64,000 nt of DNA from an archaeon (GTDB lineage Archaea > Asgardarchaeota > Thorarchaeia > Thorarchaeales > Thorarchaeaceae). Below the pieces are notes generated by a model. It was given only the letters and a program-made list of their open reading frames with translations, ran no database searches and was not told the origin of the DNA. The stretch lies in contig JAJRWI010000010.1 of assembly GCA_024276825.1 (NCBI GenBank), positions 96,001-160,000 on the forward strand. The letters run 5' to 3'. Below are positions 26,600-45,232 of the stretch, in pieces. The position numbers and the translations under genes were made by a program. Position 1 is the first letter of the stretch. Every line of letters begins with the position of its first letter.

Positions 26600-28072
26600 G
26601 TGTCCAATTGGTCGCTTATTTGCAAGAGGACCATTTCTGAAACATTGCGTAAACATGTATATTTCTTGATAGTCCTAGTCTTTGCATCTATCGTATGGAG
26701 CATAGTGTTTCATATTGCAGCCATCGAGTTCATGATGGGGATCAGGCCATTCAGAGCATCATGGACAGGGGTTGGTCAGTTCAATCTCTTTGGATATACA
26801 ATAGATTACTATTTTGAAGGTTGGGCAGACCATGATTATTATTATGTGACATGGGGTCAACAGTTTCTGCAGGGATATGTACCGTATACGACAGGATTTG
26901 ACCACTCTGTAATCAATGGTACAGAGTACTTTACACCATACTTCTTTCCACCCCTGTTTGTGTATTTATGCGCCGTTGGTGAGTTAATATCACCAGTGGG
27001 AATTGGACTGCTAATCACAGTATTTGGATTTCTCACTGCATTTCCAATTTATGGAATAGCAAGCATACTATCAAAACGTAGAGATATTGGGGCAATATCG
27101 GCTGCAACATACCTCTTCAATCCACTGGTCCTCTATCATACCGTGTTTCAATGGCTCAACCCAGCCCCATTTGTATTCTTCATATTCCTTGCATTTTATC
27201 TAATATTTAGAGGGAATAGGCTATCAGGAGCCTTAGTAATGGTCACTGCAGCACTCTTTAAGCAGACAGCGCTATTCATGGCCTTCCCACTTATTGCGAT
27301 TCTAATTAGGGTGAATCTGAAAGAGAGAGAAATTGAACCAGAAACAGTGAGTGAGAAAGATGAAAGGCCTGCAAGTGATAGGATTGACCTCTGGGGATTT
27401 GCAAAGACAAGTCTAGCAGTGATCATCTATGCACTTGCAATCTCAAGCCCATATCTTATCAATCTTGGAAAATACATATCTTCAATCTTTATGCGAATCG
27501 GCGTTGTTGACATTCAAGACTTTACAACAACTCCACCAATCTACAGACCGATTACATTCGCAGTTCCTTTTATTGCATTGGGCTTTCCTGAATGGCTAAC
27601 AAGAACTCTTAATTTCCTCACAGTATCATCCATTGGACTGATTGGGGGTATTCTTCTACTTTTTATCTTAATGTTGTTTGAGATCAAAGATGACAGAAAC
27701 ATCAATGGCTACTGGAGAAAGATGCTGTTTCTGACATTGCTGATGATGCTCTGGTTTCACCTCTGGTCCCCAAGGGGAATTTACAAGTACTATTGCATTT
27801 TGCTAATCCCCTTCTTTTCAATTTTGTCGACATCTAGAATGTGTCAAAAAGAGTGGTTAGACATCAGATTCTCAATAATTATGGTGATTTCACCGATTGT
27901 CTTTGGACTAATGATTCTGGTCCCAGACAGAAATATCTACTTATTGTATGTCTTGATGATATTCCTATTCTATGTGGCTCATACAGGATTGGGAATGATA
28001 TATGGCCGCATAACTTGTAGGTTCAGGTTCCCTAATCTTAGGAGAAGAGTCACTCAGCAGTCAGTTCCTTGA
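26600..28072 (+). CDS. GT-C fold polytopic glycosyltransferase (GT87/PIG-M-like), paralog 2
   Basis: Same motif order as the upstream gene: 'EGWADHDYYY', 'YFFPPL', 'FNP', 'WLNPAPF', 'FKQ', 'PRGIYKYY'. Confidence 0.7.
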   Translation: MSNWSLICKRTISETLRKHVYFLIVLVFASIVWSIVFHIAAIEFMMGIRPFRASWTGVGQFNLFGYTIDYYFEGWADHDYYYVTWGQQFLQGYVPYTTGFDHSVINGTEYFTPYFFPPLFVYLCAVGELISPVGIGLLITVFGFLTAFPIYGIASILSKRRDIGAISAATYLFNPLVLYHTVFQWLNPAPFVFFIFLAFYLIFRGNRLSGALVMVTAALFKQTALFMAFPLIAILIRVNLKEREIEPETVSEKDERPASDRIDLWGFAKTSLAVIIYALAISSPYLINLGKYISSIFMRIGVVDIQDFTTTPPIYRPITFAVPFIALGFPEWLTRTLNFLTVSSIGLIGGILLLFILMLFEIKDDRNINGYWRKMLFLTLLMMLWFHLWSPRGIYKYYCILLIPFFSILSTSRMCQKEWLDIRFSIIMVISPIVFGLMILVPDRNIYLLYVLMIFLFYVAHTGLGMIYGRITCRFRFPNLRRRVTQQSVP

Positions 28073-29216
28073 GCTCTTTCTCTTTCTTGGCAATCTTTTT
28101 CTTTAGGCTCTCAATCCTCTTGTCCAGCTTCTTGGCCTGTTCCATATAGTTGTCCTTACTAATGGCCCCAGAGGCATGACGCTCTTCAATATGATCACGT
28201 AATTGTTGAACTGATTTTATCTCCTTCTTCAATGCCTTGATATCTTGCTTGATCTGTTCAATTCTGTTTTCGTCCTCTGTCCTGAATTGCTTTGCAGGAA
28301 TAATGACACCAAGCTGCTTTGTCGTGCTCTCGGCGAAGTCTTGAAATTGGTTTCTTAACGCTTCAATATTTAACTCGACTTTGGAGACCTTTTCATCAAG
28401 TTTTTCGACCATCTTTTGCAGGTCAAATATTGTATTTATAAGTCTGCGAAGTGTTAGCTCCATCTCTTTGGACACAGCACTTTCAGCAGGGGCCCTCACC
28501 TGTGTCTGCTCACGCTCTGCAACTTTGCTGGGCTTCACTGAGATTGCTAGCCCGCTGAGCCACTTGAATGCACTGACTGCAAAAGTCTTGTTTCCAGGGT
28601 GCTTAATCCCACCACCCTTTCTGAAGATCTCATAGCTACCCGAACAGATGACCCTTCCATCACCATATTCAGCTGCTGCAATCACAGGTGCAGCTGGAGG
28701 ATCAGATGTATCGGAGGTCTTAACGAGGACTGTTGCCTTTCCAGTCACTGATAGAGAGCATCCCGATGGATAGAGTATGTCATTAACATCTTCAGTAGCA
28801 GGATGAGCAGCAATGTCAGACAGGATTGGCATTGTGGGAAGTCCAGCATTGTTCCTGTCGTCCTTGACAGCAGTGTTGTCAAAAGTGATATCAAATGCCT
28901 CAGAGAGTTTGCTCAGATTGTTCATCAAACCACGGTCGCCGCCAGAGAGAGCGAGTAGGAAGAGACCACCACCATTAGCAACAAACTTTTTCAACGCTTC
29001 AATCTCTGGAGCTCTGAGCTTTGAGCTGTTCGGACATCCAAAAACAATTACATTGGCCTCACCAATCTTCTTTGGAAGAATCATATATTCGGTATAGGAC
29101 TCAACTGCGAAGTTATTGTCCTTCAACAATTGAGCAAGATCCGAATATGTAGTGTCGATGCGTCCGCGCTCGTTCTGGGTCCTATCAAAGAAGATCGTTT
29201 TTCTTTCACTGCTCAA
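28050..29216 (-). CDS. Cytosolic GIFT-domain (IFT52-N-like) protein with C-terminal coiled coil
   Basis: 'TIFFD', 'EIEALKKFVANGGGLFLL...GGD....NL', 'ILYPSGCSLSV', 'GRVICSGS.EIF', 'N.TF....FKWL'; no signal peptide; long heptad region. Confidence 0.8.
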   Translation of the reverse strand: MSSERKTIFFDRTQNERGRIDTTYSDLAQLLKDNNFAVESYTEYMILPKKIGEANVIVFGCPNSSKLRAPEIEALKKFVANGGGLFLLALSGGDRGLMNNLSKLSEAFDITFDNTAVKDDRNNAGLPTMPILSDIAAHPATEDVNDILYPSGCSLSVTGKATVLVKTSDTSDPPAAPVIAAAEYGDGRVICSGSYEIFRKGGGIKHPGNKTFAVSAFKWLSGLAISVKPSKVAEREQTQVRAPAESAVSKEMELTLRRLINTIFDLQKMVEKLDEKVSKVELNIEALRNQFQDFAESTTKQLGVIIPAKQFRTEDENRIEQIKQDIKALKKEIKSVQQLRDHIEERHASGAISKDNYMEQAKKLDKRIESLKKKIAKKEKELKELTAE

Positions 29217-29327
29217 TGCATTTCACCACATTTACCAATACATGTTAGCATGCGCTTAGACTAATGTAATTTTTGCATGCGATTCAATTCGAATATTTTA
29301 TCAAATTGTCAAGCTGAATATAATGTC

Positions 29328-43643: not shown

Positions 43644-43663
43644 AGATGAGTTATTGGTGATCT

Positions 43664-45232
43664 TTACCAATTGGAGTATTGGCCATGGGCAGATGCCCCA
43701 TTAATCTGATGACGAAGTTCGTAGAGTTCTCTCATGAGAATCCTGTGCCTTCTGGTGAAGTCTTCAGGAACAAGACGCCCCTCTCTGAACATGCGAACTG
43801 TGTCATCCAGTGCTATCTCAATCTCTGAGAGTTTACGTTGAATCTCTTCAATTCTATTGCTATCGTGATTGAGGTTTCCCATCATGAATCGATCAGAGCC
43901 AGTGGCAAATGTTCTGTCCAACTCCTGTTTGTAGGAGTATGGCGAGTAATCCTGTTGGTTATGCTCCATGAATGGACTTGTGGAATAATGTGGACCATCA
44001 AACATTACAGGATTTGGCGGTGGATATGAATGAGGGGATATTGTCTGAAACCGACCAGATAGTAGAGCATGAACAAGACTATCAATCTTGATTCGAACAT
44101 CCTCAATGTTAACGCTCTTCTGTTCGAGCTTACGCACCCGCTGAAGGTCCGTTTGAACATATCTACTAAAATTGCGTGCGATCTCGACAAAATCAGGCAT
44201 GACTTTCATTGTCTGCTCACTGCAGAGAATCTTGATCATGCCTTGTTTGAACCTCATCACTATGCGTTTTCTGAATCGTCCGTCTTCCTCAAATGATTTG
44301 AAGTATTGAAGTGGAAACTCGAACACAATATCGGTCTTCTTACGTACTCGGCCTGTTTCAGCTATGAATACCAGTCTTCGATTTGTGACGTATAGAGTGC
44401 CAAGTGCTTTATCATTCTTTAGAAAATCACTTCCAACAATGCGTATGTCTGAGAATGCACATACCGGGAGTTCGTTGACTGAGAGCTCGGCATACTCGTA
44501 AAATCCACAGAACTGATTGCGATAATAGTTCAGGCCATCAAGCTGGCGATCGATTTCTGCAATGACCTTTTGAATTGGTTCGATTGTGTCATTAATTGCT
44601 TTCTTGTACTGCTTGCATATCTCACTGACTCTATGAGCCACACCCTCGATGAATGGAAATTGAGAGGGCACCCATTGATTATGATTCATTAACCCCTTAG
44701 TTTCAGCAGCAAGGCGTTTTGCAATGATCTCGACCTGATTACTTATCCTGTTCTTGGCAGCAACAATATTCTCATGGCACTCCTCAATCTTGTCCTCCAG
44801 CCATTTATAGTGCAGAAAGCTTGACATCCTAAGAGAAACCAAGAGCTGCTTTGCAGAGTGAATCCGATTACTTGTTTCACGCAATTTGGTATGACCATAG
44901 TGAATCTCCATGATTGCATGACGCATCTCTTGTGCAAGGTCACGTCGTTTCTCTTCAATCAGTACTATACGGACTGAATGGCAGTTGGGGCAGATGTTGT
45001 CAATACGTTTGCCAGTACTAAGGCGATCTGACCCACACTCGGGGCATGATTCGAAGGTTTCGCCTGGCTCTGGGACTCCTAGGGAATGGTGGCAATTAGT
45101 GCACAAATAATACTCACTGTTTCGCGACTCCAGACAATCCACGCAGAGTATAGTTCCGCAGTCTTCACACATATGTGTGGCCCGGTTCTTATCACATATG
45201 CTGCATCGGGATGAGTTTGGATCAGCTGTCAT
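43664..45232 (-). CDS. Multidomain ESCRT-associated protein: B-box/Zn ribbons, coiled coil, GRAM/GLUE-like PH, Pro-rich linker, steadiness-box-like C-terminus
   Basis: Six CxxC pairs in the first 90 aa; helical region; 'GTLYVTNRRLVF...FPL..F.SFE' PH-like; 'PHSYPPPNP'; 'IALDDTVRMFREGRLVPEDFTRRHRILMRELYELR'. Confidence 0.75.
   Translation of the reverse strand: MTADPNSSRCSICDKNRATHMCEDCGTILCVDCLESRNSEYYLCTNCHHSLGVPEPGETFESCPECGSDRLSTGKRIDNICPNCHSVRIVLIEEKRRDLAQEMRHAIMEIHYGHTKLRETSNRIHSAKQLLVSLRMSSFLHYKWLEDKIEECHENIVAAKNRISNQVEIIAKRLAAETKGLMNHNQWVPSQFPFIEGVAHRVSEICKQYKKAINDTIEPIQKVIAEIDRQLDGLNYYRNQFCGFYEYAELSVNELPVCAFSDIRIVGSDFLKNDKALGTLYVTNRRLVFIAETGRVRKKTDIVFEFPLQYFKSFEEDGRFRKRIVMRFKQGMIKILCSEQTMKVMPDFVEIARNFSRYVQTDLQRVRKLEQKSVNIEDVRIKIDSLVHALLSGRFQTISPHSYPPPNPVMFDGPHYSTSPFMEHNQQDYSPYSYKQELDRTFATGSDRFMMGNLNHDSNRIEEIQRKLSEIEIALDDTVRMFREGRLVPEDFTRRHRILMRELYELRHQINGASAHGQYSNW

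Follow-up and report, generated by a model that had tools for sequence, protein, structure and literature searches.

A Vps28-N/Vps22 fusion and a Vps23-type steadiness-box protein as candidate head partners in a reduced Thorarchaeota ESCRT locus

The window (the whole stretch of 64,000 nucleotides that was analysed) contains a reduced ESCRT locus typical of Thorarchaeota. Profile comparisons indicated that all that persists of Vps28 there is the N-terminal hairpin of the head, joined directly to the Vps22 winged helices (P0002), and that the only Vps23-type steadiness box of the cluster lies at the C-terminal end of a Zn-ribbon / helical / GLUE-like-PH protein (P0003). The best reading of the locus, with the chances for and against it about equal, is that P0002 and P0003 form a Vps28-N/steadiness-box head. 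Their genes lie at the two ends of one cluster, with Vps25, Vps4 and Snf7 between them:

40184..40987 (+), Vps28-N / Vps22 fusion gene, P0002 (Pfam EAP30, 48.8 bits; cut-off 26.8)
40241..40480 (+), Vps28-N-like helical hairpin domain, P0002 residues 20-99, containing YNVGVVDPRSFQRESEAL (profile A3)
40448..40915 (+), EAP30 (Vps22/36) tandem winged-helix region (Pfam EAP30, profile positions 58-219 only)
40989..41666 (-), Vps25 (ESCRT-II) with a low-complexity N-terminal extension and without the hairpin (Pfam ESCRT-II, E=4e-11)
41670..42854 (-), Vps4 (MIT + AAA + Vps4_C)
43014..43643 (+), ESCRT-III, Snf7 family (Pfam Snf7, E=1e-10)
43664..45232 (-), Zn-ribbon / helical bundle / PH / steadiness-box protein, P0003 (AlphaFold2 mean pLDDT 85.5)
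43676..43879 (-), Vps23-type steadiness-box hairpin, P0003 residues 452-519, containing FREGRLVPEDFTRRHRIL (family profile A4)
44174..44467 (-), PH/GRAM-like domain, P0003 residues 256-353 (beta-sandwich plus C-terminal helix in the AlphaFold2 model)
44960..45232 (-), N-terminal Cys-rich Zn-ribbon region, P0003 residues 1-91 (CxxC pairs)

Neither a canonical Vps28 or Vps23_core above cut-off nor any UQ_con/UEV or ubiquitin was found in the 98% complete genome, and UEV-Vps23 is absent from Thor and Loki according to the literature. Vps25 did not match the steadiness-box profile.

The N-terminus of P0002 is, on profile evidence, a true Vps28-N domain, which bears out what the sequence-only reading had proposed for this protein. 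The start of P0002 is probably M20 (40241), because most homologues begin at a Met aligned with residue 20. The family profile A3 matched yeast Vps28-N in register in four ESCRT-I core structures (2f6m, 2f66, 2p22, 2caz; E ~0.1-0.3, with one alignment at E=0.11). Across Asgard genomes, A3 matched once in each of 101 out of 151 (E 1e-8 to 1e-18), and most of the matched ORFs had the size of a Vps28, ~205-275 aa, with ~470-490 aa in one family (f5); the one match that was checked (genome G006) was identified by Pfam VPS28 (E=1.4e-16) and is located in a UEV-Vps23 / Vps28 / Vps22 operon. The single P0002 sequence matched Pfam VPS28 with E=0.099 over profile positions 2-50 only. The remainder of P0002 belongs to EAP30 (PF04157), with tandem winged helices scoring above the Pfam cut-off, and the usual N-terminal helical part of EAP30 is replaced, the match being confined to profile positions 58-219. 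The Vps28-C four-helix bundle (PF03997) was absent from P0002, residues 89-244 being EAP30 winged helices; by these matches P0002 is a domain fusion and not a Vps28.

P0003 is a member of the Znr_CC_PH_SB family of Makarova 2024 (PMC10936438), which comprised 92 clusters at 50% identity and was present in 103 of 151 Asgard genomes. Its C-terminus is, as judged by its family profile, a true Vps23-type steadiness box: A4 matched the yeast Vps23 core (E=8.4e-9), TSG101 (E=9e-6) and VPS37B (E=0.008), and an ESCRT-I-head hairpin in this protein, earlier called a B-box/PH protein, was thus upheld. Of 47 family members, 27 matched Pfam Vps23_core (PF09454), the best at 4e-7; P0003 as a single sequence was below detection. 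In the AlphaFold2 model the hairpin was an antiparallel helix-turn-helix with helices of ~30 residues (452-483 and 489-519; pLDDT 92-97). The earlier description of the hairpins as C-terminal after a coiled coil held for the GIFT protein (P0001) but not for P0003, where a disordered linker of 45 residues (409-453) separates the PH domain from the hairpin and the long helices precede the PH domain. In Foldseek, compact matches of the PH domain included 2cay_B, the PH domain of Vps36 (E 3e-4, TMt 0.56), and 2hth_B, the GLUE domain of EAP45; Pfam bPH_3/GRAM matches were weak. The Zn-ribbon region had short strands in the model and a weak Pfam DZR match.

Aligned in register, the P0002 and P0003 hairpin families resembled each other with an hhalign P of 2.4e-5, compared with ~0.008 for reversed controls. 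An ESCRT-I-head-like contact between the two proteins is a reasonable expectation from homology, because one hairpin is identified as Vps28-N and the other as a Vps23-type steadiness box. By analogy with the eukaryotic head and the Odinarchaeal complex, the two hairpins would pack as an ESCRT-I-head-like bundle, for which the simplest stoichiometry would be one Vps28-N and two steadiness-box copies. The membrane- or cargo-binding module of P0003 would then be tethered straight to ESCRT-II, and from there to Vps25 and to ESCRT-III/Vps4; such tethering would need neither ubiquitin nor a UEV domain.

The hairpin is not confined to these proteins. All three peptide strings singled out in the sequence-only reading were found in place, at 28125-28178 (-), 40307-40360 (+) and 43736-43789 (-), within the ORFs 28050-29216 (-), 40184-40987 (+) and 43664-45232 (-), respectively, but the pattern that they share is G-x-[IVL]-x4-[FY](-x6-L) rather than G-[IVL]-x4-[FY]. 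The bare regular expression occurs at chance frequency and is uninformative: G-x-[IVL]-x4-[FY] gave 1127 matches in 812 of 2819 ORFs and 1171 in shuffles, and the form extended with -x6-L gave 125 and 117, respectively. The hairpin domain around the pattern was conserved in each of the GIFT, Vps28-N/Vps22 and Zn-ribbon/PH families. A count of three hairpin proteins was too low, as the steadiness-box profile found 11 hairpin ORFs in this genome (E<0.01), among which the three proteins ranked 1st, 6th and 9th; besides P0002 and P0003 there are at least nine further hairpin proteins, the GIFT protein included. An ABC ATPase, a Na+/H+ exchanger and a 979-aa membrane protein end in the same hairpin, and small free-standing proteins of 72, 78 and 109 aa consist of it. 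These small proteins tell against the pairing of P0002 with P0003, as they could be the true partners. The observation of three hairpins was partly confirmed and the interpretation placed on it partly supported.

This distribution is in keeping with a second explanation, in which each hairpin would be a generic bi-helical module of SHOCT-like type that serves self-association or membrane proximity of its own protein, with no hetero-hairpin head and with the Vps28-N remnant merely dimerising Vps22. Both the steadiness-box and the GIFT-tail profiles matched the Asgard SHOCT set, and a membrane-anchoring role has been proposed for SHOCT-like domains (PMC11237479). Thorarchaeal Vps22 self-interacts in yeast two-hybrid assays according to the literature, so the P0002 hairpin could have a homodimerisation role instead. 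The resemblance to SHOCT noted earlier was found between profiles (P 1e-5 to 1e-8) but not with Pfam SHOCT (PF09851), which matched none of the three: it was not listed at E<=10 for P0002:1-95 or P0003:440-522, was absent among the 25 families listed for the GIFT tail, and matched five places genome-wide at E<=10, none of them in the three genes. Against this explanation, the P0003 hairpin family strongly matches eukaryotic Vps23/TSG101 head hairpins, whereas the SHOCT-set profile finds neither; the P0002 N-terminus is orthologous to Vps28-N, the known role of which is hetero-hairpin packing; the genes of P0002 and P0003 are retained in one ESCRT cluster; and self-oligomerisation of SHOCT was unsupported by an early experiment (PMC3581485). 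On balance this explanation is unlikely. A point against the two-protein head is that the steadiness-box family profile matches SHOCT-like hairpins (P=1.6e-8) no less closely than the GIFT tail does; the boundary between the two classes is therefore blurred, and sequence does not reveal pairing specificity.

The third protein of the proposed trimer is encoded 11 kb from the ESCRT cluster, across PolB and housekeeping genes:

28050..29216 (-), GIFT-domain protein with a coiled-coil tail, P0001 (Pfam IFT52_GIFT, 57.7 bits; cut-off 27.2)
28056..28277 (-), C-terminal helical hairpin of the GIFT protein, residues 314-387, containing HASGAISKDNYMEQAKKL (AlphaFold2)

P0001 belongs to the GIFT domain (PF23355) by its Pfam score above cut-off and its IFT52 N-terminal fold, the top Foldseek matches being the IFT52 N-terminal domains 5fmr/5fms (E 7e-14 to ~1e-13, TMt 0.75-0.82), and its family was found in 129 of 151 Asgard genomes. 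The tail was a confident hairpin in AlphaFold2 (314-348 and 354-387; pLDDT 90-94), conserved in six Asgard families, and is a genuine, ancient member of a wider steadiness-box/SHOCT/CdvA/GvpG-like class carried by at least 11 of this genome's proteins. It may pair with itself or with another hairpin.

The sequence-only reading had combined this tail with the hairpin of the Vps28-N/Vps22 fusion and the steadiness box of the Zn-ribbon/PH protein in a 1:1:1 ESCRT-I-like head, with GIFT and Zn-ribbon/PH proteins as interchangeable cargo adaptors. The tail resembled the steadiness-box family in register (hhalign score 40.1, P=2.1e-8; reversed controls ~15-17, P ~0.004), and the steadiness-box HMM matched it within this genome (E=5.7e-5), but this similarity did not exceed that to other hairpin classes, the score against Asgard SHOCT-like hairpins being 40.2 (P=1.6e-7). 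The GIFT-tail profile aligned weakly, in register, with yeast Vps28-N (E=0.16) and with no Vps23, TSG101 or Vps37 in the PDB at E<=10; Pfam Vps23_core matched 0 of 20 GIFT family members at E<=1. Within the genome the GIFT-tail profile matched small free-standing hairpins and neither P0003 nor P0002, and eight other hairpin ORFs stand as competitors. All six Asgard families with the GIFT hairpin also have the Zn-ribbon/PH family, but another six with the Zn-ribbon/PH protein have a GIFT protein without the hairpin. The GIFT gene is head-to-head with PolB in three families (f1, f7, f19), and in f7 the order is seen again with an ESCRT-I/II operon ~5 kb beyond GIFT-PolB. Here the GIFT gene lies outside the ESCRT operon, and in the loci examined it never adjoins ESCRT genes. 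The archaeal precedent, in Odinarchaeota, has two Vps23 and one Vps28 and requires no third protein. A role of the GIFT protein as a third ESCRT-I subunit was unsupported in view of the SHOCT-equal score, the lack of Vps23_core matches, the number of other hairpin proteins and its place outside the operon, and the 1:1:1 head is very improbable.

A further explanation, also very improbable, makes the GIFT protein an accessory of GldG type for an ABC/FtsX transporter, in which the hairpin would dock to the ABC ATPase tail or to FtsX-linked small hairpins and not to ESCRT. The GIFT domain matched Pfam ABC_transp_aux (GldG-type) weakly, the best in-genome match of the GIFT-tail profile was the 78-aa hairpin protein beside an FtsX permease, an ABC ATPase carries the same tail, and the gene of the 72-aa hairpin is flanked by two membrane-protein genes, of which one is FtsX-like. 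Against this, neither the present locus nor 12 others from Asgard genomes have an ABC or FtsX gene beside the GIFT gene, E-values of 0.004 are weak, the GIFT protein is without a membrane segment, and its nearest structural relatives are IFT52 N-terminal domains.

For the two-protein head of P0002 and P0003, Makarova et al. 2024 (PMC10936438) had already described the Vps28-N and steadiness-box architectures and had put forward the idea that adaptors which carry a steadiness box are varied. What is added here is the specific assignment of the Vps22-fused hairpin to the Vps28-N type, and the finding of separate genes for Vps23, Vps28 and Vps22 at the syntenic site of another Asgard family.

Among known systems, P0001 residues 1-220 resemble the N-terminal GIFT domain of IFT52, GldG and OST48 (5fmr, 5fms) in fold and sequence; unlike IFT52, P0001 is cytoplasmic and archaeal, and a coiled coil and terminal hairpin replace the middle and C-terminal regions. 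The hairpins share with SHOCT (PF09851; Eberhardt 2013) and SHOCT-like domains (Ravi et al. 2024) a short bi-helical form, a mostly C-terminal position on many unrelated proteins and the turn G-x-I-[ST]-x-x-E-[FY], but have helices of ~30-35 residues, compared with 28 residues for the entire SHOCT model. P0002 has the N-terminal hairpin followed by EAP30 winged helices, in an ESCRT cluster, and did not differ substantively from Asgard 'Vps22#' (asCOG cog.002769), a fusion of Vps22 with a steadiness box (Makarova et al. 2024, mBio, PMC10936438). Likewise, P0003 has the Zn ribbons, long helices, PH domain and C-terminal steadiness box, beside ESCRT-III/Vps4, of Znr_PH_CC_SB (cog.011556), described as a 'likely ESCRT-I component' (PMC10936438), with no substantive difference and with the domain order Znr-helices-PH-linker-SB. 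As in the eukaryotic ESCRT-I headpiece (Vps23 SB + Vps28-N + Vps37; 2p22, 2f66, 2caz, 6vme) and the Odinarchaeal Vps23(2)-Vps28 complex, a Vps23 dimer with one Vps28 (Hatano 2022), Vps23-type and Vps28-N-type hairpins similar to the solved chains occur together. The putative Thorarchaeal head differs in being without UEV, Vps28-C and Vps37, and in having Vps28-N covalently fused to ESCRT-II and the steadiness box carried on a Zn-ribbon/PH protein.

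The hairpin-bearing proteins fell in two unrelated neighbourhoods of the window, an ESCRT cluster and a GIFT locus, in a Thorarchaeota-type Asgard genome (G000; assembly of 2.9 Mb, 98% complete):

28050-29216, - strand: P0001, GIFT-domain protein with a helical tail (tail hairpin, residues 314-387)
40184-45232, mixed strands: five-gene ESCRT cluster, made up of the five genes below
40184-40987, + strand: P0002, EAP30 protein with an N-terminal extension
in the cluster, - strand: Vps25
in the cluster, - strand: Vps4
in the cluster, + strand: Snf7-family ESCRT-III
43664-45232, - strand: P0003, Cys-rich/PH protein of 522 aa

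The neighbours of P0001 were HIT, PCC, a family-B DNA polymerase and two unknown genes. The order GIFT (-), PolB (+), a protein of ~340 aa, a Zn-ribbon protein (-) and ESCRT-I/II genes was common to window positions 28050-40987 and to positions 9089-17287 of a locus (L044; G006:C1:1018000-1037900) in a genome of another Asgard family (G006). The ESCRT part of L044 was a canonical UEV-Vps23/Vps28/Vps22 operon; the ESCRT-I/II part in the window was one Vps28-N/Vps22 fusion, separated from the preceding genes by an insertion of five housekeeping genes.

The three peptide strings in which the sequence-only reading had seen a shared helix-turn-helix motif were located exactly as it had given them, and the pattern common to them was G-x-[IVL]-x4-[FY]-x6-L. 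As a regular expression, the bare motif matched 1127 times in 812 of the 2819 ORFs of the genome (shuffled proteins: 1171), and the extended motif 125 times (shuffles: 117). The bare motif was rejected as a statistic for its chance frequency and profiles were used instead; the signal is in the domains around the motif, not in the motif. The turn and both flanking helices were conserved within each of the three families, and AlphaFold2 modelled two helices of ~30-35 residues with a turn of five residues between them (pLDDT >90) in P0001 (H314-348/H354-387) and P0003 (H452-483/H489-519). The P0003 hairpin, described earlier as following a coiled coil, was preceded by a disordered linker of 45 residues. 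Pfam searches with the single hairpins returned generic coiled-coil noise, plus only VPS28 for P0002 (E = 0.099). The N-terminal extension of Vps25 was rejected as a fourth hairpin, being of low complexity and having no match to the steadiness-box profile.

Profile comparison identifies the N-terminus of P0002 as Vps28-N. The profile (A3; P0002 residues 26-105 plus orthologues) gave an in-register, weak match to yeast Vps28-N in four ESCRT-I core structures (E about 0.1); the identification was decided by its finding exactly one match in each of 101 of the 151 sampled Asgard genomes (E 1e-8 to 1e-18), in ORFs of ~205-275 aa or, in family f5, of ~470-490 aa. The G006 match, 222 aa long, scored as Pfam VPS28 (E = 1.4e-16), and its gene neighbours encode a protein with UEV and Vps23_core on one side and Vps22 (EAP30) on the other. 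Because this operon lies downstream of the GIFT-PolB-336aa-Zn-ribbon series that also precedes P0002, the Vps23-Vps28-Vps22 operon appears to have collapsed into one Vps28-N/Vps22 fusion in Thorarchaeota. The EAP30 match in P0002, the sole EAP30 protein above cut-off in the genome, did not begin until position 58 of the profile. The gene's longest ORF began 19 codons 5' of the Met used by most homologues (window 40184-40243), and the true start is probably M20 (40241).

The C-terminus of P0003 is, by profile matching, a Vps23-type steadiness box. The family comprised 92 clusters at 50% identity, with the same terminal hairpin in nearly all full-length members; its profile (A4) matched the yeast Vps23 core (E = 8.4e-9), TSG101 (9e-6) and VPS37B (0.008), and Pfam Vps23_core was found in 27 of 47 members. 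The remainder of P0003 consisted of Zn ribbons, three long helices and a PH domain (window 44174-44467, - strand), the best compact structural matches of which included the Vps36 PH domain (2cay) and the human EAP45 GLUE domain (2hth). P0003 looks as if Vps36-N and the Vps23 steadiness box had been joined in one protein. Pfam scans of the whole genome gave no canonical Vps28, Vps23_core or Mod_r above cut-off and no match to UQ_con/UEV or ubiquitin; the absence of canonical Vps28, Vps23_core, UEV and ubiquitin agrees with the literature.

The GIFT domain of P0001 scored 57.7 bits with Pfam, its top Foldseek matches were IFT52 N-terminal domains, and 129 of 151 sampled Asgard genomes had a member of the family. 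The OST48/Wbp1 subunits of eukaryotic oligosaccharyltransferase came second to IFT52 among structural relatives of the domain (window 28557-29216, - strand). The terminal hairpin was kept in six families (f1, f2, f7, f9, f19 and f24) and absent from nine others. By hhalign, the GIFT tail aligned in register with the steadiness-box family over 67 columns (score 40.1, P = 2.1e-8; reversed control ~17, column shuffles ≤14). The sequence-only reading had called the GIFT link its weakest part because SHOCT-like motifs look similar; against Asgard hairpins matching Pfam SHOCT, the tail scored 40.2 (P = 1.6e-7). The steadiness-box family was itself in register with this SHOCT set (score 42.4, P = 1.6e-8; reversed control P ~0.008), and against only the SHOCT hits above the Pfam cut-off its P was 3e-6; with the set cut to those ten hits, the GIFT tail and the steadiness-box family each scored 32. 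Pfam Vps23_core was found in 0 of 20 GIFT-tail family members, and the PDB profile search with the tail returned plectin, tag artefacts and Vps28-N in register at E = 0.16, with Vps23 absent from it as from the search with the SHOCT set. On account of the equal SHOCT and steadiness-box scores and the two Vps23 negatives, the GIFT hairpin is placed by its sequence in a broad steadiness-box/SHOCT/CdvA/GvpG-like class and is not assignable to the steadiness box proper. Its hhalign comparison with Vps28-N-type hairpins was not significant (P = 0.18). Foldseek with full-length models confirmed the GIFT and PH folds, and hairpin classes were not separable in this way. The Zn-ribbon/PH family occurred in all six GIFT-hairpin families and also in six families lacking the GIFT hairpin; this co-occurrence was uninformative because of those counter-families and the mutual relatedness of the families.

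Three hairpin proteins had been noted earlier; the steadiness-box HMM, run against every ORF of the genome (E < 0.01), found 11 ORFs, among them:

P0003: E 4e-16
G000:C33:43880-44482, + strand: tandem double hairpin protein, 200 aa, E 2.5e-10
G000:C24:97579-97908: free-standing hairpin protein, 109 aa
G000:C73:92198-92416 and G000:C18:1657-1893: free-standing hairpin proteins, 72 aa and 78 aa
G000:C45:37440-40379, - strand: 979-aa membrane protein with FKBP domain, Ig-like ectodomain and cytoplasmic hairpin tail, E 2.6e-5
P0001, GIFT protein: 6th in ranking
G000:C71:24883-25443 and G000:C71:25459-25806: two proteins encoded immediately 3' of an Arf-family GTPase gene
P0002: 9th in ranking

Weaker matches (E 0.007-0.13) included a Na+/H+ exchanger tail, an ABC ATPase tail and a 203-aa protein (G000:C33:19639-20250) encoded 3' of another Arf-family GTPase gene. 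The tandem protein might be used as a natural model, in a single chain, of how two hairpins pack together, and the FKBP/Ig membrane protein is a candidate cargo or receptor. The same hairpin formed the C-terminal tail of a MacB/LolD-type ABC ATPase (G000:C65:37244-38137). In two paralogous units (G000:C33:18657-20250 and G000:C71:24000-27563), the gene for a small GTPase of the Arf family, N-terminally extended by ~120 aa, stood immediately ahead of one or two genes for steadiness-box/CdvA-like hairpin proteins; behind the hairpin genes, the C71 unit also encoded a coiled-coil protein of 468 aa and a protein of 113 aa.

Asgard steadiness boxes and SHOCT-like hairpins may make up a continuum of sequences, each genome having about a dozen carriers; their equal closeness by profile is a lead rather than a result because the helices are short and compositionally biased. 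The continuum and its many carriers caution against naming any single hairpin an ESCRT-I subunit from its sequence. In one rival explanation, SHOCT-like hairpins would serve generic self-association or anchoring to membranes. In another, the GIFT protein would dock to hairpins associated with ABC/FtsX: in searches of this genome, the profile of the GIFT tail matched small hairpins, not P0002 or P0003, and the genes of the 72-aa and 78-aa hairpins adjoin FtsX-type permease genes.

A specific head trimer containing GIFT, as proposed from the three hairpins, is very improbable. Complex prediction with the GIFT tail as partner (A3, A4 and the GIFT-tail alignment A5) scored 0.00 twice, where the mark was 0.32; it was run without controls and bears neither way. 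The best-supported reading is that P0002-N and the P0003 steadiness box would form an ESCRT-I-like head, on the grounds of the eukaryotic head structures and of the complex from Odinarchaeota, in which two Vps23 join one Vps28 (Hatano 2022). Such a head would link the PH/Zn-ribbon module directly to ESCRT-II, ESCRT-III and Vps4, and no third, different protein would be needed in it.

The two ESCRT-cluster hairpins would make a minimal, testable ESCRT-I/II junction, in which a Vps28-N/Vps22 fusion is paired with a PH/Zn-ribbon protein bearing a steadiness box, and address how cargo enters ESCRT in Asgard archaea lacking ubiquitin and UEV-Vps23. It is unlikely, though conceivable, that in ubiquitin-less Thorarchaeota steadiness-box-like tails act as built-in sorting tags that complete the P0002/P0003 head and so bring their proteins to ESCRT directly, replacing ubiquitin-UEV recognition; candidates are the GIFT protein, the FKBP/Ig membrane protein, the Na+/H+ exchanger, the ABC ATPase, the Arf-like GTPase partners and the free-standing hairpins.

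A literature search found no paper linking SHOCT to the steadiness box, nor the equal profile closeness of steadiness boxes and SHOCT-like hairpins. The minimal junction architecture is already in the literature, and two-thirds of the observation is published: P0002 belongs to the 'Vps22#' family fused to a steadiness box and P0003 to the Znr_PH_CC_SB family, both named and proposed as ESCRT-I-related by Makarova et al. 2024 (PMC10936438), the main text of which made no mention of GIFT or IFT52. The GIFT hairpin seems to add a new carrier to a module already known. The additions made here are modest: the Vps22 hairpin is specifically a Vps28-N orthologue, apparently the remnant of a Vps23-Vps28-Vps22 operon, and a conserved hairpin belonging to this broad class is also present on the IFT52-like GIFT protein found across Asgard archaea.
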